From: a bacterium
Lineage (GTDB): Bacteria > UBP6 > UBA1177 > JAKLFG01
Assembly (NCBI GenBank): GCA_022709425.1
Contig: JAKLIW010000003.1
Span: forward strand, 102,293-166,292
DNA length: 64,000 nt
Direction: 5' to 3'
The notes under the pieces are model-generated. The model made no database searches, had not been told where the DNA came from, and was given only the letters and a program-made list of their open reading frames with translations. The stretch's first letter is position 1. Every line of letters starts with the position of its first letter. Positions 10,029 to 61,365 of the stretch are shown here, in pieces. The translations under genes and the position numbers were made by a program.

Positions 10029-10223
10029 CCACTGGACCAAGCGCAAGACCACGATGTTGCCGGTAAAGAGCACGGCATCCCCCAAGGATAGGTTGACGGT
10101 TATATATATTACAAGCAGAGGGACTCCCGGTGTCCCTGTGGCGGTGGTATGATACAAGTATGAGCGTGCCGATTTGGACCGGATTGCGGGGCACGAAAAA
10201 CGAACCGCTAAAAGGAGACTGTC

Positions 10224-10493
10224 ATGAGTGAGCACAAAGAGTTCAGACCGTTCGTTACGCGTCGTTATCTTGCCGCCGTCTATGAGCGCATCCCCGTTCC
10301 GGCGGAACTGACCACCGAGGAAGAGATGGCCGCCTTTGCGCGAGGGGCGACCCTCGGCCGCTTCAAATGTGTTCTGGCGCCGGGTCCCGGGCGGGCGATT
10401 TGGTTCAATGAAAAGGGCGAGATCACCGGGCGCGACGAACATGACGCCCAACTGCCGCGTGCAAAGCCCGATGTGGGGAGACTGATATTTTAG
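10224..10493 (+). CDS. Hypothetical protein (89 aa)
   Basis: Clean ORF that follows a promoter-like AT-rich stretch. No motif was recognised. Confidence 0.4.
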   Translation: MSEHKEFRPFVTRRYLAAVYERIPVPAELTTEEEMAAFARGATLGRFKCVLAPGPGRAIWFNEKGEITGRDEHDAQLPRAKPDVGRLIF

Positions 10494-32044: not shown

Positions 32045-32110
32045 TCACCCTTGGATAATTCGGTGAAACTGGCCACCTGTTTCGGGCAAACTGGCCACCC
32101 CTTGGAAGAG
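32045..32110 (+). repeat. Solo IS21-family terminal-repeat-like end (tggataattcggtgaaactggccacc...gggcaaactggccacccc)
   Basis: Read on the plus strand, it closely matches the reverse complement of the multi-repeat terminus of the IS21 element at 41636-41705 (tggaaaattcggtccaaactgaccggcc...). No transposase gene is adjacent. Confidence 0.55.
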
Positions 32111-32185
32111 GTCAGCTGGACAGCAAATCCAGTATGTCTTTCAATTCATCAGAGTCAACATTTTTGATTTCGGGCACCAATCTTC

Positions 32186-33829
32186 TTACCGTTTCTCCCC
32201 GTTAGGGCGGGTTCCGGCCTTCACATCCTTTGGATTGTCTGGTTGAGGTGTGTAATCGTCGAATGGACAAAGTTCCGGGTGCCGGTCGCAGTAACATTCC
32301 ATGTCGCGGGCTTTCATATAGGGAGCACTACTATCCTGCCAAACAACCCAATGGTTCTCAAATTCGGTATAGGATTGACGATATTCCAGTACCCCATCTT
32401 TATGCGGTGTCGGTAAAGAGCAGTAGCTTTTCTTTAGATCGAGTCTAAAAAAACATGCTCGGATATCCCAGTCATCTTTCTCGGTATTGGTGTAGAAATT
32501 GTTGTTATAAATTAAAAGAACACCCTTGGCGCTGACGGGGTACACACTCATTAAGGGATCTATCAGTTCCTCCATTTTCAAGTATTCATACTGTATCGGT
32601 GTTTTGCTTAGATCGACGCGAAGAAGAGAATCTCTCGTCTTATAAGCATCGGCGTAATAAAGGATATCTTCATTCGTTGAGTCGAGTACAAGATTAAGGG
32701 CGCCTTCTCCTTCGCGATTAACTACCCGACATTCGTCAAGAGAAAGCGGCTTCTTGTCGAGGTCGCAAATATAACCTTTAAAGTTATTGGCATGAAATAC
32801 CAACCGATTGTTCACAATGCTGGGCTCATTTGCTACGCCGTCTCCCAAACCGATCCATTTCCATTCGCCGATCTTGGCGTACATCATCTTTGTGGAGAGC
32901 GCATCCGATTCTTTTATATTGGCAAAAGCCCACGTCTCATTGATCACCGGATTATACACTGTTTGTCGGATCTTTTTGGGATAAGCGACTTGCCATGAAG
33001 AATTGTTCGAGTAGAGCAGATATTCCATTTTATCGTCACGGCCCGATTTTACATTGCTGAGCTTTGCGCCTTTGTAATAGGTCAGTACATCGATACCGGG
33101 ATCCATTGCAGAATACTTCCGTGTATTCAAGTCGAATTCAAAGTTTTTGGTCCATACCTGAGGATAGTTTTGCCAAGCCGAATCGACGTGTGACATCACG
33201 AACCCAACTTTACCTAGGCTCAGGTTGAAGTGTTTGAAGGTTCGAATGGCCATTTGCCATCCTTTGGGGTTGTTGGGGTTCAACATCATGTCGCATTCGT
33301 CGAGATAATACCCCTCCCTCTCATCTTTGTAAAAAGGCGTCAGTTTTCCCATCGTGCAGGGATAGCCGCAACAATCGTAATCGGGCATCGCAGTACAGAG
33401 CGCGCAGTTTTGTTCCTTCCACAAATTGCGAACGCACTGAGGGTCGCTCTTCCATACCTTGTCGCACTTCCGGCAGAAGTGTATCTTGCTGTCGGTGTCA
33501 TAGTAAGGAAACGCTACTTGGGAGAGGTCTGGGCACTCTTCGTTCCCGGTGTGGGTGTTGGTTATGTACTCGATCCCTTCGGGATCGGCAAGGCACGAGC
33601 CTCCTATTACATCTTTATCTGACTGTGCATTGTCCATTTCAACAAATTCCTCGTCGTCGGACAAGGTATCGTCTGTTTGGTCAGCTTGAACTATAATATC
33701 AACATCAGTAACGGTGTCTATCTCTTTGATTTGTTTATTTTTTTCACAGGCACAAGCAGAGAATAAGAAGAATGCTGAAATGCTTAGGATGCGGCAATAA
33801 ACCAGCTTCTTGGTTGTCTGCTGTTTCAT
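32186..33829 (-). CDS. Secreted lipoprotein (547 aa) with an acidic linker and a Cys-rich domain, lower GC
   Basis: Lipobox signal MKQQTTKKLVYCRILSISAFFLFSAC. The D/E-rich stretch DDTLSDDEEFVEMDNAQSDKD. Many conserved Cys. Its start is 2 nt after the stop of the upstream giant gene. Confidence 0.6.
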   Translation of the reverse strand: MKQQTTKKLVYCRILSISAFFLFSACACEKNKQIKEIDTVTDVDIIVQADQTDDTLSDDEEFVEMDNAQSDKDVIGGSCLADPEGIEYITNTHTGNEECPDLSQVAFPYYDTDSKIHFCRKCDKVWKSDPQCVRNLWKEQNCALCTAMPDYDCCGYPCTMGKLTPFYKDEREGYYLDECDMMLNPNNPKGWQMAIRTFKHFNLSLGKVGFVMSHVDSAWQNYPQVWTKNFEFDLNTRKYSAMDPGIDVLTYYKGAKLSNVKSGRDDKMEYLLYSNNSSWQVAYPKKIRQTVYNPVINETWAFANIKESDALSTKMMYAKIGEWKWIGLGDGVANEPSIVNNRLVFHANNFKGYICDLDKKPLSLDECRVVNREGEGALNLVLDSTNEDILYYADAYKTRDSLLRVDLSKTPIQYEYLKMEELIDPLMSVYPVSAKGVLLIYNNNFYTNTEKDDWDIRACFFRLDLKKSYCSLPTPHKDGVLEYRQSYTEFENHWVVWQDSSAPYMKARDMECYCDRHPELCPFDDYTPQPDNPKDVKAGTRPNGEKR

Positions 33830-33830
33830 T

Positions 33831-36800
33831 TTAACACCCGCTGTCGTAGCAGTCGCCGTTATCCCAAGCGGTACAGGTGCTATTACAGATTGCCGAACCG
33901 CTGTCCCATTGTGTCGGATCGACCATCGCGCAATCTTCGCTGTTCCCGTCGCAGAACTCGCCCGGTTCGATGATGCCGTTGCCGCAGATAGCGGGAACGG
34001 TGTTATTCGTCGAAAGCTTTACCTTGTTCCCGTCAGGGATGTAGACCCAACCGTTGTACAGGTAGTTCTCCTGCATTTCGCGCATGTCGCCATCCAACTC
34101 AGTGTAGTCGATGTAGGTATTCGGCAGACCGGCGAAGCGATACTCATACCCGTCACAGGAGAGGTAGAACGCGCCGTGGTCGGTCGTCAGCTCTCCGGTC
34201 GAGCAGTACGGATAGTCCCACGCCTTCCGTGTTGCAAGGTTATCGACATCGCGGATATCGATGCCCGATGACCAGAAGTCGTCCCAGTACATCGCGATCT
34301 CGCCGTTCGTAATGGCGAAGTCCATGGTACTGCCGATGTTGACATAGGCTACGCGGGCAAAGTTTTCGGGGTTGCGGATGTTAATGCCGTTGTCGTCGCC
34401 GACATAGAGATTGCCGTTATAGAGTTGGATGCGGTACTGGTAGTTGTACGGCGTGCTGTAGAAGGAACCGATGATCGAAAGGGTGTCGGGATTGACGGTA
34501 TTGAGTTTGTAGATGCCGCCGCTGGTCGCCGCGTACATGATATCGCCGTCGGCCACTTCGAGGTCGTAGACGGTCTTGTTGGTGGTAAAGGTGCTCTTGA
34601 GAACCATCGCGTTCGGGTCGCTGATGTCGTAAACCTTGATTGCACTGCCGGTACCGACATAGAGGCGATCCCCCTTGCCTGCTACGCTGTAAACGGTCGA
34701 GCCGATCGAGTACTGCTTGTACCACGGGTGGGTGAATGGGGTGCAGATATTTCCGATAAAGGTACCCCCTTCAAGAATATCATCATTGTCATTCAAGCAA
34801 TAACTTGGTGGCGCGGTAATCTTTTGCTTAATGGTTATAGTTCTCTCAGCAAGAACGTCGCTTGCTCTATCAATCGTCAGCATGGATGTCGTTGTTTCCT
34901 CAGATTGTGGTTGGGTAATGAATTTAATCGTTTCGTCATCAATGATGGTAAATGTTTTATAAAGATCTATTTGCAGATTCTCTGCCAGCTGCTCAAGCCC
35001 ACCACTGGGAGAATAACGCCAGACATCGTTGATTGGCGTCGGGATTCCATTGTACAGATTGAAGCCTCCTAGCAGATAGATAACCCCATCGGGAGTTGTT
35101 GATATGTTGACAAAATTGCGAGGCAATGGCTTGGCGACCATGGGAATAACGTCAAATGTTGTAGTGGCAGAGTTGAATCTATGAAGTGTCAGCCCATCAA
35201 GCTCATGAGTCAAGGTATATAGTTTCGTGCCAGCTGCTATCAAATGGATAGCTCCGCTTACCTCTGGTAAAGTTCCAACATGGGTTAAAACATGGGTATA
35301 AGTTGTGGGCATTGTGAATTGCAGAGCCGATGAATCGCGTTGCTGTACGGAATAAAGGCTAGCGCCAATAGACACATAGAGCCTATCGTTTAATATCGCT
35401 CCACTCATTAGGTGTGCGCTTGCTGGGAGTGCAAAGGATCCGGCATATGCGGTGTCGCTGGGGCGAGCATCATTCTGGTACCGCAGTTCGACATATCTTT
35501 CATCTTCATGTTCGTAAAAAAGAATTGTCTCTCCAGCATATTGCAGGCCAAACTTTAGATTGGTTTGAGGAATGATTCTCTGGTTTTTTTCCAATTCTTG
35601 CGTGATACTGTTATACCGCCATAGGTCGAAACGGTCATCAGCATAAGGATATCCAGGTGTTGCCTCAGGCATAGTGTAGGTGATTTCAAAAGGAAGGCGA
35701 GGGGGAACGATAAAAACCTGATCGGGCGCGTAACTCATTCCTATCGCATAGGAAAGGGGCGTGCCGGAGAAGCTGTCTCGTGTTGAACGGGCAAAGATTC
35801 TGTCGTTCTTGAAGCAGGCGCTATTTTGTGTTTTGCCACCTTCGCCATCATCTACGAGGTCGTTGGCTTCTGTGCATTTCACGGTACCTTGAGGACCACC
35901 CGAAACGGCATAAGTGATAAAGGGATCGAGCGAAGGGTTATAAGTTGGCTCCTCATTAGCGACATGTTCTTCATATAAATCCAAGTATTCTCCTTCTAAG
36001 TCTGGTTTCCAGTCCCAAAGATGCGTTTGGTCCGGAGATTCTTCGTAGATTCCCTTTTGGCTTACGATATTATTTCCGGTAGGTACTTGCCATGATGGAT
36101 CAGTCCCCTGTCTGAGTGGCATAGGGTCGCTTCCGTGACTGTACGCGAAATCGCTAGAAAAGAGGAAGTGAATTGAAGATTCGTTGCTCGTTGTGCAGTA
36201 ACCGCCAGTACCCCAACGATTGCTATAATCACTTTGAGGCACCCAACAATAGCGAAGAATACTGGGATGCGCTATACTGTTGTAGACTGGCGCTCCTTGA
36301 GATATGACTCCTGAGTCATGATCTATTGCGACAAGACTGTTTATTTCACGAGATTGTACCTGACCACCATAAACGATTTCGTTCTTTGGAGAGCCATTAA
36401 CAAAACGAGAAGAAATAACAGTATGATGCCATCCGTCTCCCACAAGATTGTCAGGGCCTATCCCTTTGGGAGTATCACAGGCATCTCCGGTACCGTCCAA
36501 ATCATGATCGGGCTGCCATGTCCATTTTGAGAAAGATAAAAAAAGGTTAGGAGATGTTTTCAGATAACCGTATTTGAAAGTCTTTTTGTTGTATCGTGCT
36601 CCGCCCTCGTTTTCATTGGTACAGTGGGGCAGGGAAAGATCTCCATTTTGAAAGTAAGAAACTCCTGTTCTACATTCCCCCTGAATAAGTTCACTGTTCC
36701 AATCTTCAGCTTCCACAAAGGGGTTCCCCTTTTGTGGACAATTATCGCAGATGTCAGCGATACCATCGGTATCCGAGTCGGCAATGGGAGTTCCAAACTG

Positions 36801-38900: not shown

Positions 38901-39266
38901 GAAGGCTCCCTCTTATTTGGGTAAGAAATACATCGCAAATTACTTTTTTCATCTATTGGGTAAGACCCCTCGCTTGGCGATTGAAGAAACAAAGCCGCAA
39001 TCAAAAACTCCCGTTCCTTGCCCTTTGAGATACCAAAAAACCCATGAAGGATTCAGGGTTTTCCAATATATTTTGTATCCTTCCGTTTTTATTTGGCTAT
39101 ATCTTTCTCTGACTGAGAGTCTGATCTCGCCTTGCTTCGGCAAGAAGACTTGCCCCCGCATCAACCCCATGCAGATACCTTCCGGCTTTTGACTAATTAC
39201 TCCCATATTAGGGATGGTTCCGCAGAAGAAATCAAGTTTTCCGTGAGAGAGGATATTACCGGTTCC

Positions 39267-40028
39267 TCACTTCTTCCCGATGGCCTTCTTCTTGCGCATA
39301 GACTCGCCCTTGATCTCGATGCGGTGAGCCGAATGGACCAGACGGTCGAGGATGGCGTCGGCGATGGTGTGGTCGCCGATCACATCGTGCCACTCCTTGA
39401 CCGGCAGTTGCGAGGTGATGATGGTGGCTTGTTTGCCGTGGCGGTCCTCGAGAAGATCAAGAAGGATCAGGCGTGCCTCACCATCGAGCGGTTGAAGACC
39501 AAAGTCATCGAGAATGAGGAGCTGCTGCTTGGCGATACGGGCGATGGCGCGGGGATAGGAGTTGTCGGCTTTCGACATCTTGAGATCGGCAAGGAGCCGG
39601 TTGGTGTTGGCGTAGAGTACCCGGTACTGCTTGAGGCAGGCATGGTGACCGATCGCCGAGGCGACATAGCTCTTGCCGGCGCCGGTCGCCCCGGTGACGA
39701 TGATGTTCTCGGCCTGATCGATGAATGTGCAGGCGGCCAGACGGGCCAATTGGGTCTTGTCGATGTTGCGGGCGGCCGAGAAGTCGAGTTCGGCCACCAA
39801 TGCCTGATACCGGAACTTCGCCTGCTTGATACGGCGGGCCTGTGTCTTCTGCTGCCGGTACAGCCACTCGGCCTCCACCAACATGTTCACGATCTCGTCG
39901 TTGGTGTAGCGGGCCCGGGTCTCCTGCGCGGTGTTCCATGCGTCGCGCATGCCGAACAGCTTGAGTTCGTTCATCTTAGCGATGGTGGTGCTCATCTGGT
40001 GCCTCCTAGCGGTAATCGTTTCGTACAT
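39267..40028 (-). CDS. istB: IS21-family helper ATPase IstB
   Basis: 253 aa. Walker A NIIVTGATGAGKSY. DnaA/IstB-like AAA. Overlaps the istA stop. Confidence 0.9.
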   Translation of the reverse strand: MYETITARRHQMSTTIAKMNELKLFGMRDAWNTAQETRARYTNDEIVNMLVEAEWLYRQQKTQARRIKQAKFRYQALVAELDFSAARNIDKTQLARLAACTFIDQAENIIVTGATGAGKSYVASAIGHHACLKQYRVLYANTNRLLADLKMSKADNSYPRAIARIAKQQLLILDDFGLQPLDGEARLILLDLLEDRHGKQATIITSQLPVKEWHDVIGDHTIADAILDRLVHSAHRIEIKGESMRKKKAIGKK

Positions 40029-41541
40029 TATGGTGCAACGGCAAGGCGTACTGTGTCGGGGCGGGCGTCAGGCGGTCGAGGTCTTTTTTCAGGATTGACT
40101 CGATGCTGTGGTAGCTGTAGTTGTCGAAGAGGGCGGCCCGCTTGCAGGCATTGTTGAGTCGGTACGGGCCGTACCGGTTCTCCTTGGCCAGAGCGAGAAT
40201 GCCCAAACAGGCGCGAAACGCGATGTGGGGATGCGGTCTGCTCGCTATCAGCGCCTTGAGGTATGCCGCCGTTTCGGGACCGATGGTCGCACCCTTGGCG
40301 ACGATGCGTTCCTCGCTCCATTCGGTGAGTTCGGGTTGGTGTTTCGGCGGGAGGTGGGCCGGGATCAGTTGGTACCGTTCCCCGGTGCGGACATGGTAGG
40401 CGATGCGACGATTGTTGTGGATGACCTCAAGGTGTCGGGCGCTGTAGACGACCTCCACGGTCTTGCCGATATAGGGATAGGGAACGCTGTAAAAGTTCAG
40501 GTCTTCGCTTGCCTGTATGAAACAGAACTTGCTCACCTTCTTCGTCTCGTAGCGCTTCGGTTCATAGCGGTCTATCGGGAGCGGCCTCAGAGTTTCCTTC
40601 TCTCCCGTCTCGAAGAGGTCGCGTCTACTCTCGCTCCTGTTGGTCAGCGGCGCGTCGTTCAGGGCGTCAACGAGTTCTCTGATGCGCCGGTTAAGGGTCT
40701 CAAGGTCGAAGAAGGTCTCATTCCTGAGTAGAGCGTAGACATTCCGGTAGACGATCTTCACCATGTTCTCGACATGGGCTTTGTCCTTGGGAGCGGCGGT
40801 TCTCGTCGGATGCGCCGAGGTGCCGTAGTGGGTACAGAAGTCCTCGAAGGTGCGGTTCAATTCTGGTTCGTACCGGTGCGCCTTGGTGACGGCGCTTTTC
40901 ATGTTGTCGGGTACGATGAGGGAGGGGACCCCGCCCAGGTACTCGAGGGCGTTCTCCAAGCCGTAAAGAAAATGGGCCGTCTTCTGGCTCTGGACCGCCT
41001 CCGCGTAGCCGAGGCCGCTGTAGGGAAGAACGGCGACCAGTACCTCGGCTTCCCATATCTCGCCCGTGTCGCGGTCGACCAGCGGCAGTTTGCCGCCCGC
41101 GAAGTCCACGAACAGCTTGTCGCCCGCCTTGTGCCGGAGGTAAACCGAGCTTTCCATCTGCCGCAGGGCGCGTTTCAGGTGGGCACAGAACTGGGTGTAG
41201 GCGTACCCATCGGCATGGCGTTCCCGGTACTCCACCCACAGGCGTTTCTTGTCCACGCCACGCTTGCCGAGTTCCTTTTCCATGTAGGGGATCTCTTCCA
41301 TGAGCGTCTTGAAGCGTTCCGGTTCCGCCGGACCTTTATAGAAAAGCTCCTCGAGGTCCTCATCGCTGAGTTCGAGCACCTCGGCAAGGGGGAGTTCGCT
41401 CCTGAGGAAGGCTTGGTAGTAGTTGCCGACCGTCGTCTTGCTGACATCAAGTATCCTCGCCACGCTTCGGTCGCTCCGGCCTTCCTCCAATCTCAGTTTC
41501 AGCAGTTTGCGTACTTTCATGCGGTCCTTCCTCCGGTTCAT
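40006..41541 (-). CDS. istA: IS21-family transposase IstA (HTH + DDE)
   Basis: 511 aa. N-terminal HTH (RSVARILDVSKTTVGNYY). Integrase-core region. Typical IstA length and organisation. Confidence 0.9.
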   Translation of the reverse strand: MNRRKDRMKVRKLLKLRLEEGRSDRSVARILDVSKTTVGNYYQAFLRSELPLAEVLELSDEDLEELFYKGPAEPERFKTLMEEIPYMEKELGKRGVDKKRLWVEYRERHADGYAYTQFCAHLKRALRQMESSVYLRHKAGDKLFVDFAGGKLPLVDRDTGEIWEAEVLVAVLPYSGLGYAEAVQSQKTAHFLYGLENALEYLGGVPSLIVPDNMKSAVTKAHRYEPELNRTFEDFCTHYGTSAHPTRTAAPKDKAHVENMVKIVYRNVYALLRNETFFDLETLNRRIRELVDALNDAPLTNRSESRRDLFETGEKETLRPLPIDRYEPKRYETKKVSKFCFIQASEDLNFYSVPYPYIGKTVEVVYSARHLEVIHNNRRIAYHVRTGERYQLIPAHLPPKHQPELTEWSEERIVAKGATIGPETAAYLKALIASRPHPHIAFRACLGILALAKENRYGPYRLNNACKRAALFDNYSYHSIESILKKDLDRLTPAPTQYALPLHHNVRNDYR

Positions 41542-41704
41542 GCATTCCTCCGCCGTTGTTAAAAAGGCGGCGGAAGTCTAGTCCGTTTTTCTTCCTGCGC
41601 TATTTATGCTGTCTGGCTGACCCCTCAGAAGAGGGTGGCCACTTTGACCGAATTACCCGGCCAGTTTGCTCCGAATTGGCCGGTCAGTTTGGACCGAATT
41701 TTCC

Positions 41705-45364: not shown

Positions 45365-46771
45365 TTACACATACACATCGACCGCGCCGTCCTCTATCTT
45401 CTTGAGCGACGCGGCGGTCTTCTGGCGCAGTTCCTCCTGCGGGATATCGGCGAGCATCTTCCCGATGAGCGCGTCGCCCACCTTCCGGGTCTCGGGCGTC
45501 GCGTAGTTGACCAGATATTCCTTGAAACTCGTGATCGCGTTGGGCAGACAGAAATGCTTGATGAGCCCCGGCTTGGCGAGATCCATGAAATCCTGACCGG
45601 TGCGCCCGAGCCGGTAACAGCCGGTGCAGAACGACGGGATATAGCCCATCGTCGCGATATCGCGGATCACCTCTTCCAGAGAACGGTGGTCGCCCAGCGA
45701 GAACTGTTCGCCGCCCGAATCCTCGGAATAGCCGCCGGGGTTGGTGCGCGACCCGGCCGATATCTGCGAGATGCCCAGCGACAGGGCGTCGCGGCGCGTC
45801 TGGGCGTTCTCGCGCGTCGAGAGTATCATCCCGGTGTAGGGGACGGTGATGCGGAGGATGGAGATTATCTTGCGGAAATCGCGGTCGCTCACGGCGTGGG
45901 GCGGATTGAGCGATACCTCCGACCCGGTCGCCGGCTCCAAGCGCGGCACCGATATGGTGTGGACGCCGGTGCCGAACCGTTCCTCAAGGTGGTGGATGTG
46001 CTGGAGCAGCGCCATCACCTCGAACCGGTAATCCTCAAGCCCGAAGAGGATGCCGACGCCGACATCGTCGATGCCCGCTTCCATCGCGCGGTCCATCGCG
46101 GTGAGGTGGTAGAGGTAATCGGACTTGGGCCCCGACGGGTGCATCGTCTTGTAGGTATCGGCCTGATAGGTCTCCTGAAAGAGTTGGTAGGTGCCGATGC
46201 GCGCCGCTTTGAGCGTCTTGTAGCCCTCGACCGGCAGCGCGGCGATGTTGATGTTGATGCGCCGTATCTCGCCTTTCCCCATCTTGACGCTGTAGACCGT
46301 CTCTATCGCCTTGACGGTGTAGTCGAGCGCCTGCATCCCGAGCCCTTCTCCCGTGAGGAGGAGCACCCGCTTGTGTCCCTGCTGGATGAGCGACTGCGTC
46401 TCGCGGCGTATCTCGTCGAAGGTGAGCGTCCGGCGCGGTATCATCTTGTTGGTGCGGCGGAAGGCGCAGTAGAGGCAGTCGTTGTTGCAGAGGTTCGACG
46501 CGTAGAGCGGCGCGAAGAGGACCAGCCGCTTGCCGTAGATCTCTTCTTTAATGAAGCGCGCGGTGTCGGAAATGCGGGCGAGGTGGGCGTCGTCCTCGAC
46601 CATCAGCAGTCGTTCCGCCTCGGCGTAGGAGATGCCCTTCAGTTCCTTGGCGTGGGCGAGTATCTCGTCCAGTTCCTTCGCGTCGGGCGGCGTGGTGTTC
46701 TTGAGGTAATCGTAGATCCTGCCGTGGTCGATAAAACCGGTATCCATGGAAGCCTCCGTAAGAATGATCAA
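45365..46771 (-). CDS. hydG: [FeFe]-hydrogenase H-cluster maturase HydG (radical SAM, 2-iminoacetate synthase family)
   Basis: 468 aa. Radical-SAM CNNDCLYC. C-terminal CTGC-x22-C auxiliary cluster motif, which is HydG-specific and absent from ThiH. Confidence 0.85.
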   Translation of the reverse strand: MIILTEASMDTGFIDHGRIYDYLKNTTPPDAKELDEILAHAKELKGISYAEAERLLMVEDDAHLARISDTARFIKEEIYGKRLVLFAPLYASNLCNNDCLYCAFRRTNKMIPRRTLTFDEIRRETQSLIQQGHKRVLLLTGEGLGMQALDYTVKAIETVYSVKMGKGEIRRININIAALPVEGYKTLKAARIGTYQLFQETYQADTYKTMHPSGPKSDYLYHLTAMDRAMEAGIDDVGVGILFGLEDYRFEVMALLQHIHHLEERFGTGVHTISVPRLEPATGSEVSLNPPHAVSDRDFRKIISILRITVPYTGMILSTRENAQTRRDALSLGISQISAGSRTNPGGYSEDSGGEQFSLGDHRSLEEVIRDIATMGYIPSFCTGCYRLGRTGQDFMDLAKPGLIKHFCLPNAITSFKEYLVNYATPETRKVGDALIGKMLADIPQEELRQKTAASLKKIEDGAVDVYV

Positions 46772-46912
46772 GCGCTCTGTTAGGCTATACTAACCACAAA
46801 AAAGTAGAAATCAACCTTTGAAGTCCAAATATTAGGTAAATTTCGCGCAACGCCCCTTGATACTTTGTTTTTTCGCTCTATACTGATACCCAACACCGGT
46901 GGAGGAGGCATC

Positions 46913-48004
46913 ATGCGGCTAGGGATAGAGAAGATACTGCAAAAAGATGATCTGGGCCGCGACGACCTTATCGCGCTGCTCGACATCGACGACCCGGCAG
47001 AGGAGGCGGCGCTCTTCAAGCGCGCCTACGAGGTGAAGCAGAGATATGTCGGGACGAAGGTCTATTTCCGCGGGCTCATAGAACTGTCCAACCTCTGCGT
47101 CAAGAACTGTTTCTACTGCGGCATCCGGCGCGGCAACGGGGCGGTGAAACGCTACACCCTTTCCGAAGAGGAGGTGCTCGACGCGGTGAAGTTCGCCCAT
47201 GCGGCGCGCTACGGATCGGTCGTCATCCAGAGCGGCGAGCGGCAGGACGAGGAGTTCGTCTCCTTCATCGAACGGCTGGTTACGCGGGTGAAAGAGGTGT
47301 CGCATAACGAACTCGGCATCACCCTGTCGCTGGGCGAACAGTCGGAAGCGACCTACCGGCGCTGGTACGCGGCGGGGGCGCACCGCTACCTCCTGCGCAT
47401 CGAGACCAGTAACGCACTGCTTTATAAGACGCTCCACCCCGACGACCACGATTTCGAGGCGCGGCTGGAATCGCTCCGGACGCTGTACAAACTCGGTTAT
47501 CAGGTGGGGACCGGCGTCATGATAGGACTCCCGGGGCAGACGACCGCCGACCTCGCCGACGATATCGCCTTTTTCAAGAAGATGGATGTGGCGATGATCG
47601 GGATGGGCCCCTTCATCCCGCACCATGAGACGCCGCTTGCCGCCTCGATCCCTGACTGGCAGGAGCAGAAGGAGCGGCAGTTGCGCCGCGCTCTGCGGAT
47701 GATCGCGGCGGTCCGCATACAGTTGAAGGATGTCAACATCGCCTCGACCACCGCCCTGCAGGCGATAGACCATGTCGGCCGCGAGATGGGGCTCCTCGCC
47801 GGGGCCAACATCATCATGCCCAATCTCACCGACACCGAATACCGCACCGGCTACCAACTCTACGACGGCAAGCCCTGCATGGACGAGAACGCGACGATGT
47901 GCGCCGGGTGTCTGGAGCGGCGCATCACCTCCATCGGCGAGACCATCGGCTACGGCGAGTGGGGCGATTCGCCGCATTTCAAGAACGCGAAAAAAGAACA
48001 CTGA
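46913..48004 (+). CDS. hydE: [FeFe]-hydrogenase H-cluster radical SAM maturase HydE
   Basis: BioB-like radical SAM CVKNCFYCGIRR. Start at a Met preceded by a GGAGGAGG RBS. Adjacent to hydG and hydF. Confidence 0.8.
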   Translation: MRLGIEKILQKDDLGRDDLIALLDIDDPAEEAALFKRAYEVKQRYVGTKVYFRGLIELSNLCVKNCFYCGIRRGNGAVKRYTLSEEEVLDAVKFAHAARYGSVVIQSGERQDEEFVSFIERLVTRVKEVSHNELGITLSLGEQSEATYRRWYAAGAHRYLLRIETSNALLYKTLHPDDHDFEARLESLRTLYKLGYQVGTGVMIGLPGQTTADLADDIAFFKKMDVAMIGMGPFIPHHETPLAASIPDWQEQKERQLRRALRMIAAVRIQLKDVNIASTTALQAIDHVGREMGLLAGANIIMPNLTDTEYRTGYQLYDGKPCMDENATMCAGCLERRITSIGETIGYGEWGDSPHFKNAKKEH

Positions 48005-48017
48005 CGGAGCATACCCC

Positions 48018-49226
48018 ATGAAAGTACAGCGCGGCGACAGCCTCTTCATCGGCATCTTCGGGCGGCGCAATTCGGGCAAATCGTCGCTCATCAACGCCGT
48101 CACCAAACAGGAGATCGCCATCGTTTCCGCCGTGCCGGGAACGACCACCGATCCGGTCTTCAAGGCGATGGAACTCCTGCCGGTCGGCCCGGTCACCTTC
48201 ATCGACACCGCCGGTATCGACGACACCGACGGAACTCTCGGCGAAGAGCGGGTGAAGCGGACCGAACGGATTCTGGCCAAGACCGATCTCGCACTGCTCG
48301 TCATCCCGGCCGAGGCGACCTCGTTCGCCTTCGAGGATCAGCTCATCGCGAGTTTCGACAAATACCGCATCGAGTTCGTGACGATCATCAACAAGGCCGA
48401 TACGGCGGTGGCGCCCGAACTCCTGAAATGGCTCGGCGACCGCCCCGCGACGCGGATATCGGCGCTCAAGAAAGAGGGGATAGAGGAACTGAAAAAGGCG
48501 ATCATCGCCGCCGCCCCGAAGGAATGGGAACCGCCGCTCCTGCGCGATCTGTTCGAGCCGGGTGACGCGGTGCTCCTCATCACCCCGATAGACCGCGGCG
48601 CGCCCAAAGGCCGCATGATCATGCCGCAGGCAAAGGCGATCCGCGAGGTGCTCGACGGCCACGGCATCGTCATCGACATCACCGAATACGAGATCGAGGC
48701 GGCGCTGAAGGCGCTCAAGGTGAAGCCGGTCCTCGCCGTCACCGATTCGCAGGCTTTCGAAAAGGTCGCCCCGGCGGTCCCCGAGGATATCCCGCTCACC
48801 GGCTTTTCGGTCCTCTCGATACGGCAGAAAGGGGAGTTGCGCCCGATGGTCGAGGGGGTCATGGCGGTCAAGAGTTTGAAACCGGGCGACAAGGTGCTCA
48901 TCGCCGAGAGTTGTACCCACCACCCGATGGAGGACGATATCGGCCGCCTCAAGATACCGCGCTGGCTGTCGGAGTATGTCGGCGGCCCGCTCGATGTCCA
49001 TGTCGTCCCCGGCTACGACTACCCCGACGACCTGTCGACCTACAAACTGGTCGTCCACTGCGGCGGCTGTACCCTCAACCGGCGCGAGGTCCTGCGCCGT
49101 CAGGCGGTCCCGGCGAAGTTTCATGTGCCGATGACCAACTATGGTATCCTCATCGCTTTCCTTCGCGGGGCCTTCCCGCGCGCTCTCAAACCCTTTCCTG
49201 AGGTCGCTGATCTCATAATTATTTAA
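48018..49226 (+). CDS. hydF: [FeFe]-hydrogenase maturation GTPase HydF
   Basis: G1 GRRNSGKSSLINA. G2 GTTTDP. G3 DTAGID. About 400 aa with a C-terminal cluster-binding region (CGGC). Confidence 0.8.
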   Translation: MKVQRGDSLFIGIFGRRNSGKSSLINAVTKQEIAIVSAVPGTTTDPVFKAMELLPVGPVTFIDTAGIDDTDGTLGEERVKRTERILAKTDLALLVIPAEATSFAFEDQLIASFDKYRIEFVTIINKADTAVAPELLKWLGDRPATRISALKKEGIEELKKAIIAAAPKEWEPPLLRDLFEPGDAVLLITPIDRGAPKGRMIMPQAKAIREVLDGHGIVIDITEYEIEAALKALKVKPVLAVTDSQAFEKVAPAVPEDIPLTGFSVLSIRQKGELRPMVEGVMAVKSLKPGDKVLIAESCTHHPMEDDIGRLKIPRWLSEYVGGPLDVHVVPGYDYPDDLSTYKLVVHCGGCTLNRREVLRRQAVPAKFHVPMTNYGILIAFLRGAFPRALKPFPEVADLIII

Positions 49227-49408
49227 ATCTAATTAGGATTCTATTTGCGGACTACTCTGTCCGTTAATCCATAAATGATACAAAAAAAATTGACTTTGAA
49301 TGGTCCCCCATACTAGGGTGGGCCGATATTTGTTCCCGCACTGACAATCGAGTCTAGTTAGCGATACGGTAGTTTACCGCAACGAACAACACGAAGAGGA
49401 GGTCTTCA

Positions 49409-50683
49409 ATGTCTCAGCAGAATCCCGGGAATCGGTGGCTTATCGCCATCATGGGCACCACGCTCCAGTTGGTGCTCGGCACCGTCTATGCGTGGAGTTT
49501 CTTCCAGAAACCGATCATGGCCGCCTACGGCTGGAACAATGTGCAGGTCATGTGGATCTTCAGCATCGCCATCTGTTTCCTCGGTATCGGCGCCACCATC
49601 GGCGGTCTGAACCTTGCCAAGTTCGGCCCGCGTAAGCTGGCGACCACCGGCGCCGTCATGTGGGGTGTCGGCTGGCTTATCGGTTCTTTCGCGATGTCGA
49701 TCCAGAATCTTCCGTTGTTCTATCTCGGCTATGGGGTGATCGGCGGTCTCGGCCTCGGCCTCGGCTATGTTACTCCGGTCGCCACGGCGGCGAAGTGGTT
49801 CCCCGACCGCAAGGGATTCATCACCGGTATGGTCGTCATGGGATTCGGTCTCGGCGCCCTTCTTATGTCGAAGGTCGTTGCGCCGCTCATCATGAACGCG
49901 GTCGCCAATGATCTTCCCACTGCGTTCCTCTACATCGGCATCGTCCTGCTTGCGATGGGTATACCCGCCGGCCTGATCATGAAGAACCCGCCCGCCGGCT
50001 TCGTTCCGGCCGGCTGGACGCCGCCCGCCACCACCGCCGCCGCGCAGGGTCATCAGGACGATCTTACCGTCAAGACCTGCATCACCTCCAGCAAATTCAT
50101 CCGCATGTGGATAATCTTCTTCCTCAACATCAGCGCCGGTATCATGTTCATCGGTCTTCAGTCGCCGATGCTGCAGGATCTTCTGAAAATAGGCGATCCG
50201 ACCATGGATACCGCCGCTCTGGCCGCTGCGGGCGCGACCCTCATCGGCATCAGCTCGCTCTTTAACGGCATCGGCCGCTTCTTCTGGGGCGGTCTTTCCG
50301 ATAAGATCGGTCGCGTGCAGGCATTCCGTCTTATTCTCGGCACCCAGATGGTGGTCTTCCTGCTGCTTACCATCGTCGGGAATCCGTGGATATTCGGCGC
50401 GGCTGTTTGCTATGTCCTTCTCTGCTACGGCGGCGGCTTCGGCACGATGCCTTCCTTCGTGCTCGACGTGTTCCACGCCCGCCTGATGCCCATCGTCTAC
50501 GGTATCATCCTGACCGCGTGGTCGACCGCCGGTATCGTCGGTCCTCAGATCGCCGCGTATCTCAAGGACAATTTCGCCGGTCAGGCGGCCACCTACACCT
50601 TCATCGCGGGCGCGATCATGCTGGGTATCGGCCTGCTGATCGCTTTTACCCTGAACAACAAGTCCATCACCGACAAGAGCTAG
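49409..50683 (+). CDS. MFS transporter, oxalate/formate antiporter (OFA) family
   Basis: 424 aa with 12 predicted TMs. N-terminal WLIAIMGTTLQLVLGTVYAWSFF is characteristic of the OFA family. Strong AGGAGG RBS. Confidence 0.75.
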   Translation: MSQQNPGNRWLIAIMGTTLQLVLGTVYAWSFFQKPIMAAYGWNNVQVMWIFSIAICFLGIGATIGGLNLAKFGPRKLATTGAVMWGVGWLIGSFAMSIQNLPLFYLGYGVIGGLGLGLGYVTPVATAAKWFPDRKGFITGMVVMGFGLGALLMSKVVAPLIMNAVANDLPTAFLYIGIVLLAMGIPAGLIMKNPPAGFVPAGWTPPATTAAAQGHQDDLTVKTCITSSKFIRMWIIFFLNISAGIMFIGLQSPMLQDLLKIGDPTMDTAALAAAGATLIGISSLFNGIGRFFWGGLSDKIGRVQAFRLILGTQMVVFLLLTIVGNPWIFGAAVCYVLLCYGGGFGTMPSFVLDVFHARLMPIVYGIILTAWSTAGIVGPQIAAYLKDNFAGQAATYTFIAGAIMLGIGLLIAFTLNNKSITDKS

Positions 50684-50719
50684 AGTCTTTTTGTTCTATT
50701 CTTCCATAAGGACAGCCCC

Positions 50720-52123
50720 ATGAAGGATTTCGGGACCGCCGCGATACTCGCCGGGGGAAAAAGCATCCGCATGGGGTTCGACAAGCAGTTGCTGGAGGTC
50801 GGTGAGAAGCGGATCATCGAGACCCTTATCGCCGCGCTCAAAGAGGATTTCGACGACATACTGGTCGTTTCCTACCGTCCCGAATTCTACGAAGGACTCG
50901 GCGTGCGGGTGGTTCCCGACATCCTGCCCGACAACGGACTCCTCGGCGGCATCCATGCAGCGCTTACCCATGCGGCGAGCCGCTACGCCTACATCGTTGC
51001 CTGCGATATGCCGCACCTCAATCCGTTCTACATCGAGTTCATGAGAAGGGAGATGGAGAAAGAGGGGGGGGAGGCCTGCGTCACCCGCAACGGTGAGTGG
51101 ATAGAGTCGATGAACGCTTTCTACGCAAAGGACCTTGTCCCCGCCCTCGAGCGTTATCTCGCCGGGGGCGGCCGGTCGGTCTATCCATTCCTCAGGGAGC
51201 GGACGGTCCGCTATATCGACGAGACGGTCGCCCGCAAATTCTGTCCCGATTACCGGATGTTCCTCAATCTTAACACCGAAGAAGACCTGCGAAAGTACCG
51301 GGACCGCGTCGCCGCGGGGTCGGCGCCCGCCGTGACGATGGGGCGTCGGGTGAAAAAGTACCGCAACGGCGCGATGCAGTGGGTCGATGATCCGGTGGTG
51401 ACCGAATACGGGCTGACCATCCGCATCAACGGCCGTGAGTTCGCGACCCTGCTGTGCACCCCCGCCGCGCTGAAGGAACTGGCGGTCGGCTATCTGTTCT
51501 CGGAGGAGGTGATCGACGCGGCGGCCGATCTTGCCGGGCTCATGCTCGACACCGCGACCGGCATCGTCGAGGTGTCGGTGAGTGACGATCGCGCCGGCCG
51601 GGCGTTCGCACGGGACCGAAAGCGGACGGTCACCAGCGGTTGTGGCGGCGGCGTCACAACGCTCGATCCGCTCGATCGGGGCAAAGATCCCTCCCCGATC
51701 ACCGGCGCTCCCGTCGATCTGGACCGCATCGCCGCACTGATGGACGCATTCAACAACCGGTCGAAGATATTCATCGAAACGGGCGGCGTCCACAGTTGCG
51801 CGATCGCCGACGGGGAGGGGATACTCCTCTTTCAGGAGGATATCGGGCGGCACAATGCGTTGGACAAGATAACGGGCGAAGCTCTCCTGCGCGGCATCAC
51901 CCCGGACGGGAAACTGGTGCTGACCAGCGGCCGCATATCGTCCGAGATCGTTGCCAAGAGCGTCAGGCTCCGGCCGGCCGCGATCGTATCTCGTTCGGCG
52001 CCCACCGCCACGGCGATAACGCGGGCCGCGGAATTGGGTATTGGGCTCGCCGGTTTTGCGCGGGGGAGGAACATCAACATGTATACCTGTTTCGAACGCT
52101 TCACCGTTGGAGAGAAGCAATGA
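50720..52123 (+). CDS. Fusion of molybdenum cofactor guanylyltransferase MobA (N-terminal) with formate dehydrogenase accessory sulfurtransferase FdhD (C-terminal)
   Basis: MobA block AAILAGGKSIRMGFDKQLLEVGEKRIIE. FdhD blocks TSGCGGG and GRHNALDKITGEAL. 467 aa. Confidence 0.75.
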   Translation: MKDFGTAAILAGGKSIRMGFDKQLLEVGEKRIIETLIAALKEDFDDILVVSYRPEFYEGLGVRVVPDILPDNGLLGGIHAALTHAASRYAYIVACDMPHLNPFYIEFMRREMEKEGGEACVTRNGEWIESMNAFYAKDLVPALERYLAGGGRSVYPFLRERTVRYIDETVARKFCPDYRMFLNLNTEEDLRKYRDRVAAGSAPAVTMGRRVKKYRNGAMQWVDDPVVTEYGLTIRINGREFATLLCTPAALKELAVGYLFSEEVIDAAADLAGLMLDTATGIVEVSVSDDRAGRAFARDRKRTVTSGCGGGVTTLDPLDRGKDPSPITGAPVDLDRIAALMDAFNNRSKIFIETGGVHSCAIADGEGILLFQEDIGRHNALDKITGEALLRGITPDGKLVLTSGRISSEIVAKSVRLRPAAIVSRSAPTATAITRAAELGIGLAGFARGRNINMYTCFERFTVGEKQ

Positions 52124-52170: not shown

Positions 52171-53598
52171 ATGAGAAAGATCCTGTTCCTGTTCATTCTG
52201 TGCTTCATGGCGGTAGCCGTGGCGCAGGAAGAGGCCGCTCCGGTCCCGGCTCCGGCCGAAGAAAAGGCCGCTCCCGCGACTGGCGACGCCGTCGAGGCGC
52301 GCATCAAGGCGATCGAAGAGAATCAGGCGAAACTCGAGGAGGAGAACAAAAAGCTCCGCGAAGAACTCGCCGCCAAGAAAGAGGTCGCCGAAGCGCCGAA
52401 AGCGGAATCGGCGAAAGAGGAAAAGAAGGAAGAGAAAAAAGCGGTCGAGTTCGCCCCCTACGGGTTCATCGAACTCTACGGCTGGGCTCATGATGCGGCG
52501 TTCAATGCCGGCGACTTCCCGATAAAAGTGGTGGACGAAGGCAAGAGCACCACCGGCATGACCGCCAAGAATTCACGGTTTGGGACGAAGATCATGTTCC
52601 CTCGTATCGAAGAGGTCAAACTCGGGGCGACCCTTGAGATCGACTTTTTCACCAATATGGCCGACACCGGCTATGCCGAGTCTTACCCGATGATCCGCAT
52701 GCGCCACGCCTTCTTCGAACTCAGCAAGACGTGGGATAATTCGACGCTCGGCTTTAAGGCCGGTCAGACCTGGTCGACCGCGACCCCGATACTGTTCCCG
52801 GCTCAGATCAACCCGTCGCTCGGCTGGGGTCTGGGCAACCTGTGGCAGCGGATGCCGCTGGTCGAAATATACTTCACTCAGAAATTCGCCGAGACCTTCG
52901 CCTTCACGACCCAGTTGGCCGCTGTGCGCGCCATGAGCGGCGCTTCGGCCAACAAGAACGGTTTCCTCGAGGTCAATATCGATGCGGGCGACGCGTCGCA
53001 CATCCCGCAGATACAGGGCCAGCTTTCGCTCAAAGGCGCTTTTGCGGGTCTCGATCTGCTCGTCGCCGTCGGCGGCGCGTGGGGCCGTGAGAGCTACAAG
53101 GGCGGCGTGATCCCGAACAAGGACACCAAGAAAAAACTGATCGGTGATACGGCCGATGTGGTCTTGGTCAATCCGGCGCTCAAGCTGTCGCATGAATACT
53201 TCGAAGTGGCCGGCAAGTTCTTCTGGGGTCAGAATGTCGATGTGTTCGGCGCGTTCGGCGGCGCTCTCATAACCGAACTGGTCGCTGCAGAGACCCCGAC
53301 CACCCCGAAGACCAGCCGTGTCACCGGCAGTCAGACGACTCTGGGTTACTGGGCGCAGGCCACCGGCAAACCGCTTAAAGGGTGGAACCTCAATGTCGGC
53401 TACGGCGCTGAAGATCCCGAAAAGGAGGCCGGGGCCGACCTAACATTCCTGAGCAATTCTTCAGTTTGGGTCTCCTCTTTTTATACCTTCTTCGAGCGGG
53501 TGACCATCGGTGTGCAGTGGTCGCATGTCTGGACCGAACTGTTGACGAAGGATATCTCCGGCAACACCATCATGGGTAGCGCGAAGGTCAGCTTCTAA
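52171..53598 (+). CDS. Outer-membrane porin-like beta-barrel protein with an N-terminal coiled-coil/low-complexity region
   Basis: Signal peptide. KEE-rich coiled coil. Alternating amphipathic strands. C-terminal aromatic residue (…AKVSF). Confidence 0.5.
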   Translation: MRKILFLFILCFMAVAVAQEEAAPVPAPAEEKAAPATGDAVEARIKAIEENQAKLEEENKKLREELAAKKEVAEAPKAESAKEEKKEEKKAVEFAPYGFIELYGWAHDAAFNAGDFPIKVVDEGKSTTGMTAKNSRFGTKIMFPRIEEVKLGATLEIDFFTNMADTGYAESYPMIRMRHAFFELSKTWDNSTLGFKAGQTWSTATPILFPAQINPSLGWGLGNLWQRMPLVEIYFTQKFAETFAFTTQLAAVRAMSGASANKNGFLEVNIDAGDASHIPQIQGQLSLKGAFAGLDLLVAVGGAWGRESYKGGVIPNKDTKKKLIGDTADVVLVNPALKLSHEYFEVAGKFFWGQNVDVFGAFGGALITELVAAETPTTPKTSRVTGSQTTLGYWAQATGKPLKGWNLNVGYGAEDPEKEAGADLTFLSNSSVWVSSFYTFFERVTIGVQWSHVWTELLTKDISGNTIMGSAKVSF

Positions 53599-53622
53599 GA
53601 CCCATTCCCGTATCGTCATTCA

Positions 53623-53652
53623 GAGGCGCTCCTCCGGGGGCGCCTTTTTTTG
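53623..53652 (+). terminator. Rho-independent terminator after the porin gene (aggcgctcctccgggggcgcct + ttttttt)
   Basis: A GC-rich hairpin is followed directly by a 7-T tract. Confidence 0.7.
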
Positions 53653-53734
53653 TTTGCCGATTATATTGACTCGCTCGTCGCCGTTCGCTAGTATTGGACG
53701 CTATGGTCCGAATAACAACCGAAGGGAGCGAATC

Positions 53735-60294: not shown

Positions 60295-61365
60295 TCAGGC
60301 GTGCGGTTCGCGGCGTTCGGCGACCCATTCTTTGAGGGGGTTTCTGATGAAGCGCGGCGCCGTGGCCAGTTCGCGGGATGCGCGGCAGCCGGTCAGGAGC
60401 GTCGCGGCGCGCAGACCGTGCAGGAGCGAGCCGATATAGTTGCGCGCCCCTTCGAGTCCGCCGGCATAGTAGGCGCGCAGGACCGGACTGGCCGCTCCGA
60501 CGAGCGTTGCCCCCAGCGCCAGCGCCCGTGCCGCGTCGATGCCGGTGCGGATGCCGCCCGATGCGATGACCTCAAGGCCGAGTCCGCCGGTTTCGCAGAC
60601 GGCGGCGGCGGTGGGTATGCCCCAATCCCAGAAGGCGGTCGCCTGCGGGTCCTTGTCACGGTGAGAGCGCAGTATCTCGACGCCGATCCAGCTCGTGCCG
60701 CCGGCGCCGGCGATATCGAGATGCCGCACCCCGGCGTCGCGGAGGCGCAGCGCCGTTTCGCGGCTTATCCCCGCGCCGGTCTCCTTAACGATGAGCGGTA
60801 TGTCGAGTTCATGGGTCAGTTGTTCTATGGCCGTGAGGATCCCCTTAAAACTGCGGTCGCCTTCCGGTTGTAGTATCTCCTGCGCCGGATTGAGGTGGAT
60901 GCATAGAGCGCTCGCCCCGATGCGGTCGGCGAGCCGGCATATCTCCGAGACCGGATAGCGGGTCGCCTGTACGCCGCCGATGTTCCCGGCGATAAAGGCG
61001 GTCGGCGCTACTTCACGCACTGCGTAGGTCGTGGTCAGATCGTCGTCCTGCAGCATCGCCCGCTGGGAGCCGAGCCCGAACCCGATGCCGAACTCTTCGG
61101 CGATGCGCGCGAGCGTCCGGTTTATCGTCGCCGCTTCGGGTGTGCCGCCGGTGATGCCGGTGATGAAGAAAGGGGCGCGGAAATGGTGTCCCGCGAAGGA
61201 GGTGGAGAGATCTATTTCGTCGAGCGCCGTTTCGGGAAGCGCGCAGTGGATGAATTGTACGCATTCCAGCAGAGTCGTGGTCCAGCGCGAATCGATCGGT
61301 GCCGCGCGGAAAAGTTCCAGATGGTCCTTCTTGCGTTTGACCGTCACGCTCTTGTTGTCGTACAT
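60295..61365 (-). CDS. fni: Type 2 isopentenyl-diphosphate delta-isomerase (FMN-dependent, IDI-2)
   Basis: 356 aa. N-terminal KKDHLELF....FIHCALPE..LDEIDLSTSF.G..F.APFFITGITGG. TIM-barrel FMN sites (ASGGIRTG). Confidence 0.85.
   Translation of the reverse strand: MYDNKSVTVKRKKDHLELFRAAPIDSRWTTTLLECVQFIHCALPETALDEIDLSTSFAGHHFRAPFFITGITGGTPEAATINRTLARIAEEFGIGFGLGSQRAMLQDDDLTTTYAVREVAPTAFIAGNIGGVQATRYPVSEICRLADRIGASALCIHLNPAQEILQPEGDRSFKGILTAIEQLTHELDIPLIVKETGAGISRETALRLRDAGVRHLDIAGAGGTSWIGVEILRSHRDKDPQATAFWDWGIPTAAAVCETGGLGLEVIASGGIRTGIDAARALALGATLVGAASPVLRAYYAGGLEGARNYIGSLLHGLRAATLLTGCRASRELATAPRFIRNPLKEWVAERREPHA

Follow-up and report, generated by a model that had tools for sequence, protein, structure and literature searches.

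A complete set of maturase genes for [FeFe]-hydrogenase (hydG, hydE and hydF) lies beside a gene for a major facilitator superfamily (MFS) transporter and a mobA-fdhD fusion gene on contig JAKLIW010000003.1 of assembly GCA_022709425.1, from a bacterium of the GTDB lineage UBP6; UBA1177; JAKLFG01. We analysed a 64-kb stretch of this contig (positions 102,293 to 166,292 of the forward strand; hereafter the window, in whose own numbering coordinates are given). We consider it likely that the locus consists of two ordinary accessory units placed side by side, hydG/hydE-hydF and MFS-fusion-porin; hydA very probably resides in a normal operon elsewhere in the genome. We read two units, not one regulon, because conserved sequence blocks precede the MFS gene and because synteny varies in three related loci (L096, L097 and L099). 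A preliminary description of this DNA had proposed a coordinated formate–hydrogen module, for which we find little support, given that the MFS-fusion cassette comes and goes independently of hydGEF among close relatives and that a conserved promoter-like element follows hydF. The genes named in that description (three maturases, a transporter and MobA-FdhD) are all present and look intact, as judged from a listing of open reading frames (ORFs) and from profile searches against Pfam and NCBIfam models with curated cut-offs. They belong to known and already annotated families: the exact six proteins are in GenBank as HOW51624–HOW51629, under locus tags of the PLV42_ series, and NCBI had already assigned the product names HydG, HydE, HydF and FdhD. 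The observation was correct, but its surprise dissolves.

Organization of the locus

The hydG gene (45365–46747, minus strand, 460 aa, HOW51624.1) is separated from hydE (46913–48004, plus strand, 363 aa, HOW51625.1) by a divergent intergenic region of 165 bp (46748–46912) with a candidate sigma-70-like promoter, and hydF (48018–49226, plus strand, 402 aa, HOW51626.1) follows hydE after 13 bp. A 182-bp spacer with conserved blocks (49227–49408, plus strand) leads to the MFS gene (49409–50683, plus strand, 424 aa, matching PF07690). The fusion gene (50720–52123, plus strand, 467 aa, HOW51628.1) starts 36 bp downstream, and a DcaP-like porin gene (52171–53598, plus strand, 475 aa) begins after another 47 bp. 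The unit had previously been drawn as ending at 52123; we find that it continues through the porin gene to the sole strong intrinsic terminator of the region (53622–53657, plus strand; an 11-bp stem with 7 G-C pairs, then TTTTTGTTT). The second unit, MFS-mobA::fdhD-porin, would probably have its own promoter and end at this strong terminator.

The spacer ahead of the MFS gene contains TTGACT (49290–49295), ATACTAGGGTGG (49310–49321), GAGTCTAGTT (49350–49359) and a hairpin, CGGTA-N3-TACCG (49367–49379). The blocks TTGACTTTG, ATACTAGGGTGG and GAGTCTAGTT and the hairpin show no variation in relatives that share only 72–82% identity in the fusion protein. An inverted pair, ACTAG...CTAGT, about 35 nt apart, is also kept together with the hairpin in relatives, although three sequences are too few for covariation. 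A search of the 182-nt spacer for Rfam families and for Moco-type or other riboswitches returned noise only. The spacer is probably a separate promoter or operator followed by a 5' leader, and its conserved blocks may act as an operator or as a small cis-regulatory RNA.

Related loci were found by a metagenome scan with HydF and compared gene by gene. The hydGEF genes adjoin the MFS-fusion cassette in L005, L095 and L002 as in the window. L096 lacks the MFS gene and the fusion at this place, and its membrane-complex genes begin 74 bp after hydF; in L097 and L099 hydGEF is accompanied by hydAB. Among close relatives, the cassette is present or absent independently of hydGEF.

Several observations weigh against two separate units and would suit one co-regulated module in which formate uptake, formate dehydrogenase (FDH) maturation and hydrogenase maturation support a metabolism like that of formate hydrogenlyase. 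The hydE, hydF, MFS, fusion and porin genes are co-directional with short gaps, and a weak hairpin, not a strong terminator, follows hydF, so read-through co-transcription is possible. Of the five informative close relatives, four retain the adjacency of hydGEF and MFS-fusion, which may reflect some functional coupling. The operon of L002 and L095 also carries a Hyf/HycE-like six-subunit membrane complex, whose HycE-like large subunit has E. coli formate hydrogenlyase subunit 5 as its best PDB match, and the MFS gene occurs only together with the fusion and the fusion only together with it, which would fit a formate transporter. On the other side, the locus holds neither a HydA nor an FdhA catalytic subunit, and the transporter passes an L-lactate model and not the formate/oxalate ones. 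The HycE-like subunit of the relatives lacks all four NiFe-ligand cysteines and is therefore not a hydrogenase, and the membrane complex is absent from the window. Together with the promoter-like element ahead of the MFS gene and the arrangements in L096, L097 and L099, these points make a single module unlikely, and we prefer to see two neighbouring units.

The H-cluster maturases

All three maturases score above the cut-offs of their equivalog models: HydG reaches 545 bits against TIGR03955 (cut-off 312), HydE 347 bits against TIGR03956 (cut-off 255) and HydF 493 bits against TIGR03918 (cut-off 326). Their defining motifs are intact. HydG has the radical-SAM motif C87x3Cx2C (C87NNDCLYC) and the C-terminal C374x2Cx22C (C374TGC...C400), and HydE has C62x3Cx2C (C62VKNCFYC). 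HydF combines the GTPase motifs GRRNSGKS (P-loop), DTAG and NKAD with HydF_dimer and HydF_tetramer domains (matches to PF18128 and PF18133) and a cluster site, C299xHx46HCxxC (C299THH...HCGGC), that conforms to the family pattern CxHx(44-53)HCxxC. A complete H-cluster maturase set, including the CX2CX22C motif of HydG, is thus confirmed. As to its description as a hydG-hydE-hydF cluster, the genes are indeed adjacent, but they do not form a single operon, since hydG lies on the minus strand and is transcribed away from hydE-hydF.

A promoter scan of the plus strand between hydG and hydE identified a sigma-70-like element, TTGATA-16-TATACT (46857–46884), with matches at 10 of 12 positions. The block is kept in L005, an 82% relative, and not in L002; we infer that it acts as a promoter.

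By their family assignments, HydG would produce the Fe(CO)2CN synthon, the source of the CO and CN ligands of the H-cluster, from tyrosine; HydE would help assemble the dithiomethylamine-bridged 2Fe precursor; and HydF would be the GTPase scaffold that holds this precursor and hands it over to the apo-[FeFe]-hydrogenase. The equivalog scores and the defining cysteine and GTPase motifs match those of the known HydE/HydF/HydG systems of Chlamydomonas, Clostridium, Thermotoga and Shewanella, and the clustering of maturase genes apart from hydA is an arrangement often seen in known systems. The window differs from these in its divergent hydG and in a client hydA that was seemingly split off by an IS21-linked rearrangement. 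Maturase genes unlinked to hydA are commonplace. In Clostridium genomes, the locus tags of hydE, hydF and hydG lie far apart from one another (PMC9431212, Table 3).

A group A6 hydrogenase outside the window

The absence of hydA from the window, as first described, was borne out by our searches: a profile search of the window's large ORFs gave no Fe_hyd_lg_C match, and a six-frame scan of the 64-kb window for the three H-cluster signature motifs found no instance of any of them. The 10 kb past the 3' end of the window contain neither hydA nor fdhA; they carry histidine kinase, hopanoid, isoprenoid and aromatic-amino-acid genes (DAHP synthase) and a peptidase gene. As a trait of the organism, however, the absence of hydA very probably does not hold, since a group A6 HydA (HOW52917.1) is encoded on another contig of very probably the same genome. 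The preliminary description had allowed for a hydA just outside the window in a conventional operon; a conventional operon very probably exists in the genome, but not within 10 kb of the 3' end.

The path to this gene led through the relatives. In L097, whose HydF and HydG are 81% and 85% identical to those of the window, a 598-aa HydA with all three signature motifs and a NuoF-like hydB abut hydG, and in L099 (58% identical) hydB-hydA lies 4 kb from hydF-hydG-hydE. A search with the L097 HydA, followed by reading of the cluster members, yielded HOW52917.1, whose record carries the name 'NADH-dependent [FeFe] hydrogenase, group A6' and which scores 809 bits against the A6 model NF040763 (cut-off 765). 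Its locus (L174/L175/L176) has the order selA-selB-yedF-selD-hydC-hydB-hydA, with hydC NuoE-like and hydB NuoF-like, and continues with an alcohol dehydrogenase gene, two large genes and an IS21 element.

We place this HydABC-type hydrogenase very probably in the same genome bin as the window because of accession proximity, a shared sample, a shared IS21 element and matching composition. Its accession lies 1,293 numbers from the window series HOW51624-36. JGI digester sample 3300025706 contains a copy of the HydA contig as well as a contig identical to the window. The IS21 copy at the HydA locus is 96.8% identical to that of the window (39154–41003). The tetranucleotide correlation of the HydA locus with the hyd region of the window is 0.968, compared with 0.98 for the sister genome L002 and far lower values for unrelated loci. 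Furthermore, the alcohol dehydrogenase of the HydA locus is 87% identical to the one encoded beside hydG in L002, and a sister metagenome-assembled genome (MAG) carries an orthologous HydA, HSA34409.1. What tells against our placement is that the link is indirect, made through accession series, sample, insertion sequence and composition, and not through one assembly record.

If the link were wrong, the maturases might be true orphans in an organism without [FeFe]-hydrogenase, with HydE, HydF and HydG serving a different client. The empty searches of the window and of the 10 kb beyond its 3' end would suit this reading, as would the indirectness of the link. Given the several features that the HydABC locus shares with the window, the presence of hydA beside hydG in close relatives and the orthologue in the sister MAG, we judge orphan maturases very improbable. 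Our preferred reading is that the maturases would serve the HydABC-type hydrogenase of group A6, an NADH-dependent enzyme whose genes lie elsewhere in the genome.

Directly upstream of hydC-hydB-hydA in this probable same genome are selA, selB, yedF and selD. Selenocysteine genes beside hydCBA indicate that the organism makes selenoproteins, and a selenocysteine-containing FDH encoded elsewhere could plausibly be served by the MobA-FdhD fusion.

The MobA-FdhD fusion

The fusion gene is a single uninterrupted frame of 467 codons. Pfam places PF12804 at residues 7–155 and PF02634 at residues 227–461; the MobA part extends over residues ~1–197 and the FdhD part over residues ~205–461, joined by a linker of ~10 residues. 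The FdhD half scores 175.9 bits against TIGR00129 (cut-off 140.9). The MobA half scores 119.9 bits against PF12804 (cut-off 27) and remains below the cut-offs of two equivalog models for stand-alone MobA (107 vs 164 and 94.9 vs 151.85 bits). Over its whole length, each half aligns with solved structures in the PDB (FdhD with 2pw9 and 4pde, MobA with 3ngw and 1e5k). The MobA half contains LAGGKSxRMG and ACDMP, and the FdhD half contains a TSGCGG loop with Cys306, GGVHS and GRHNALDK, of which GGxHS and GRHN are invariant in the fusion alignments. Cys306 aligns with the first cysteine of the TGCGVCG loop of E. coli FdhD.

We considered whether two neighbouring genes could have been joined into this ORF by an assembly error or a frameshift, the latter possibility having been raised in the preliminary description. 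In other phyla, mobA and fdhD are commonly found as separate neighbouring genes. We scanned species-representative genomes with the fusion alignment and sampled 80 loci from the matches listed; among these, mobA lies directly upstream of a separate fdhD in about 10 of the 80, and many of the listed matches that appeared full-length are in fact such adjacent, separate genes. Against an artefact stand the uninterrupted frame in the window and orthologues of 467–468 aa, 72–100% identical, in four independent assembly sources (JGI, Logan, ENA and NCBI). The alignment of close relatives is free of gaps across the linker, and more than 120 further sequence clusters have the same architecture. An artefact is so improbable that we disregard it: the single MobA-FdhD polypeptide is genuine, as first described.

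The fusion had also been called uncommon, which overstates its rarity. A database distribution check found it in more than 120 clusters, in several phyla and in both domain orders. At E<=1e-10, 961 sequence clusters match the fusion, and the best 120 of the 961 are all two-domain. Named carriers include Andreesenia angusta and an Oscillospiraceae bacterium, and the reverse order, FdhD-MobA, occurs in Geomonas and others. Among the genome matches listed, single-ORF fusions were found in Coriobacteriales, Verrucomicrobiota and Gemmatimonadales (3 of the 80 sampled loci), and no relative is closer than 44% identity. A limited full-text search found no paper describing a natural MobA-FdhD fusion.

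In one large subgroup of Oscillospiraceae-like fusions (P0038, P0055, P0070, P0078, P0099 and P0103), the whole sulfur-relay cysteine loop of FdhD is missing, and these loop-less proteins carry SRHN where GRHN is expected; in P0084 the deletion is shorter. The loop-less fusions may have lost sulfurtransferase activity or use another route.

MobA makes bis-molybdopterin guanine dinucleotide (bis-MGD), FdhD binds, sulfurates and inserts bis-MGD, and the two proteins interact in two-hybrid experiments (PMC13197769). In distant relatives, nuoE-like, nuoF-like and fdhA genes come immediately after the fusion gene, with fdhA split at a probable selenocysteine codon, and an FdhA-like gene occurs within 10 kb in 37 of 82 FdhD loci. 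This context in distant relatives, together with the MobA/FdhD interaction, supports a role of the fusion in FDH maturation. The MobA domain would add guanosine monophosphate to Mo- or W-molybdopterin to give bis-MGD, and the FdhD domain would take over bis-MGD, sulfurate its metal by way of the Cys306 loop and load it into an FDH encoded elsewhere. The fusion would thereby hard-wire two consecutive steps and a known hand-over. Two results weigh against such a client: profile searches of the window gave no molybdopterin FDH catalytic gene, and no FDH catalytic gene has been located for the genome, for which no genome-wide FDH search was made.

The likeness to E. coli MobA and FdhD thus extends over the full-length alignment to solved structures and the LAGG, CDMP, Cys-loop, GGxHS and GRHN motifs, and includes the two consecutive activities of interacting proteins. 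The window protein differs in being one polypeptide with a linker of ~10 residues, in having no client FDH gene adjacent, and in a MobA domain that falls under the NCBI stand-alone cut-offs. Its FdhD loop has one cysteine (SGCGG), like that of the Desulfotalea protein 2pw9, where E. coli has CGVCG.

The MFS transporter

The transporter had been assigned to the formate/oxalate (OFA) family and to formate uptake, which our analysis does not support. The protein scores 350.7 bits against NF049980, an L-lactate MFS model built on SfMCT (cut-off 320), and lies below the OFA models TIGR04259 (166.8 vs 335) and TIGR00890 (197.3 vs 374.85). Its best PDB match is SfMCT (6g9x, E=1e-45), with OxlT at E=4e-24. 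On the basis of the lactate-binding residues of SfMCT reported by Bosshart et al. (PMC6573034), we mapped the pocket onto the window protein. The carboxylate site is kept, with Y119, N276, R280, Y331 and F335 corresponding to Y120, N286, R290, Y340 and F344, and so are the proton-site residues D257, K377 and D378. The position of Lys355 of OxlT is occupied by Trp371, so the second positive charge is missing and a dicarboxylate is an unlikely substrate.

We conclude that the protein is a monocarboxylate/H+ symporter of the SfMCT type, SLC16-like and related to OFA. By the curated model its predicted substrate is lactate. Lactate is not established by this, as four of the nine SfMCT pocket residues are changed in the window protein (L28V, L145F, F359L and C362W). 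Formate may also be a substrate, mainly because in relatives the genes for the transporter and the fusion are either both present or both absent.

SfMCT of Syntrophobacter fumaroxidans (6g9x/6hcl) is thus the best structural and sequence match, with the carboxylate and Asp/Lys/Asp proton-site residues in common. Differences are the four pocket changes and a leucine in place of H250, through which specificity may differ, and the tight pairing of the window gene with an FDH-maturation gene. OxlT (8hpj) belongs to the same broad MFS branch and shares the motif LFNGxxRxFWGxxSDKIGR in transmembrane helix 8, but the window protein stays below the OxlT/OFA cut-offs and has Trp371 in place of Lys355.

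The MFS protein is 95–99% identical among relatives, compared with 70–89% for the neighbouring fusion and 67–84% for the porin, which suggests that the transporter gene is under unusually strong constraint or has recently been exchanged. An FMN_dh gene at 60295–61365 was considered as a lactate dehydrogenase partner and rejected; NCBI names it type-2 isopentenyl diphosphate isomerase, and it lies among isoprenoid genes.

The porin

The translation of the porin gene has a signal peptide, a heptad-rich N-terminal coiled coil, a beta-barrel-like remainder and a C-terminal Phe. It gives no direct Pfam match. One homologue, P0155 (41% identical, E=1e-96), reaches 31 bits against PF19577 (DcaP; cut-off 27), and another, P0150, stays below the cut-off with 24.2 bits. 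The protein is probably an outer-membrane porin, distantly DcaP-like. It shares signal peptide, coiled coil, barrel-like part and C-terminal Phe with the trimeric DcaP porins of Acinetobacter, for which its homologue P0155 passes the model; unlike these, the window protein itself is under the Pfam model, and its family comprises about 27 clusters from uncultured bacteria only.

Porin orthologues occupy the same operon in L005, L095 and L002. More distant homologues (61% and 42% identical) occur in unrelated contexts, and the porin is therefore not tied to the operon at longer range. In an uncultured, diderm and anaerobic host, the porin and the SfMCT-like symporter together would carry a small monocarboxylate across both membranes, lactate by the model and possibly formate.

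A hydrogenase-related complex in relatives

Near hydGEF and the MobA-FdhD operon, three relatives carry six hydrogenase-4-like genes (L002:11457-18676, L095:7562-9931 and L096:4314-7372). Their products are a large subunit with fused NuoC and NuoD parts, a NuoB-like small subunit and HyfB-, HyfC-, HyfE- and HyfF-like membrane subunits. In L002 the block separates the fusion from the porin gene, in L095 it follows the porin gene, and in L096 it comes straight after hydF; neither L005 nor the window has it. In the HycE-like subunit, RVCGICGFAHS is replaced by SVSGDAAVAHA and DPCYSC by NLSYCG, and with both replacements all four NiFe ligands are gone.

In these relatives, the six-gene make-up resembles formate hydrogenlyase and hydrogenase-4 (Hyc/Hyf), and the large subunit is nearest to HycE. 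The loss of the NiFe-ligand cysteines sets the complex apart as Ehr-like and not a hydrogenase. We take the cysteine-less complex to resemble the 'hydrogenase-related' Ehr complexes reportedly described by Marreiros et al. in 2013, for which, to our knowledge, partners have yet to be named. One could imagine a new formate- or lactate-linked ion-translocating complex in which FDH and/or the [FeFe] HydABC enzyme replaces the NiFe site, with the window a reduced version whose membrane arm is missing. The idea comes from the repeated occurrence of hydGEF beside an operon that combines the transporter, the fusion, the porin and, in several relatives, the Hyf-like complex, and we consider it quite improbable.

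An IS21 element and a low-GC island

An IS21-family element occupies 39154–41600 (right end approximate, minus strand), with istA at 40006–41541 and istB at 39267–40028 and a match of 254.7 bits to NF033546. It marks the boundary where a defence island of lower GC content meets the hyd region, 4 kb from hydG. GC content rises from 51% on the left of the element to 59% on the right, and the left-hand region is compositionally foreign, with a tetranucleotide correlation of 0.685 to the hyd region. The JGI contig breaks within this element, and short-read assemblies break inside the IS21 copies.

Two IS21 copies, in the window (39154–41600) and at L175:18475-20327, lie one beside hydG and the other beside hydA. 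Each adjoins a paralogous large-gene pair of ~70% identical DNA (window 32052–33595 and 35744–35930; L175 11317–12867 and 14852–15038). A search for terminal inverted repeats and target duplications of the IS21 element gave no clear ends. The most likely, because simplest, history would be that hydCBA once stood beside hydG, as in L097, and became separated from it by an IS21-associated insertion or rearrangement of the foreign, lower-GC island.

The island (window 1–39000) encodes a WYL/WCX regulator, an AAA ATPase, a DUF1643 protein, Mrr-like and HNH nucleases, two HSDR_N-N6_Mtase proteins, a 1384-aa protein with NERD and double protein-kinase domains, a 1689-aa TSP_3-repeat protein and unannotated ORFs of 558 and 1820 aa. 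A match to the SAM_alpha (SAM-II) riboswitch family inside the island (10156–10231, plus strand; 38.2 bits, gathering score 36) overlaps an ORF of the minus strand, and no methionine or S-adenosylmethionine gene follows it; the match is probably a false positive.

Implications

The lack of hydA in the 64-kb window is no argument that the maturases are orphans, nor does an OFA-like MFS protein encoded beside fdhD speak for formate transport. The sole lead with real discovery potential is the variable Ehr-like complex beside these genes in relatives, and it lies outside the window. As a natural 'Rosetta stone', the MobA-FdhD fusion supports the view that MobA passes bis-MGD directly to FdhD, and it could become a convenient single-chain tool for maturing recombinant, CO2-reducing formate dehydrogenases.

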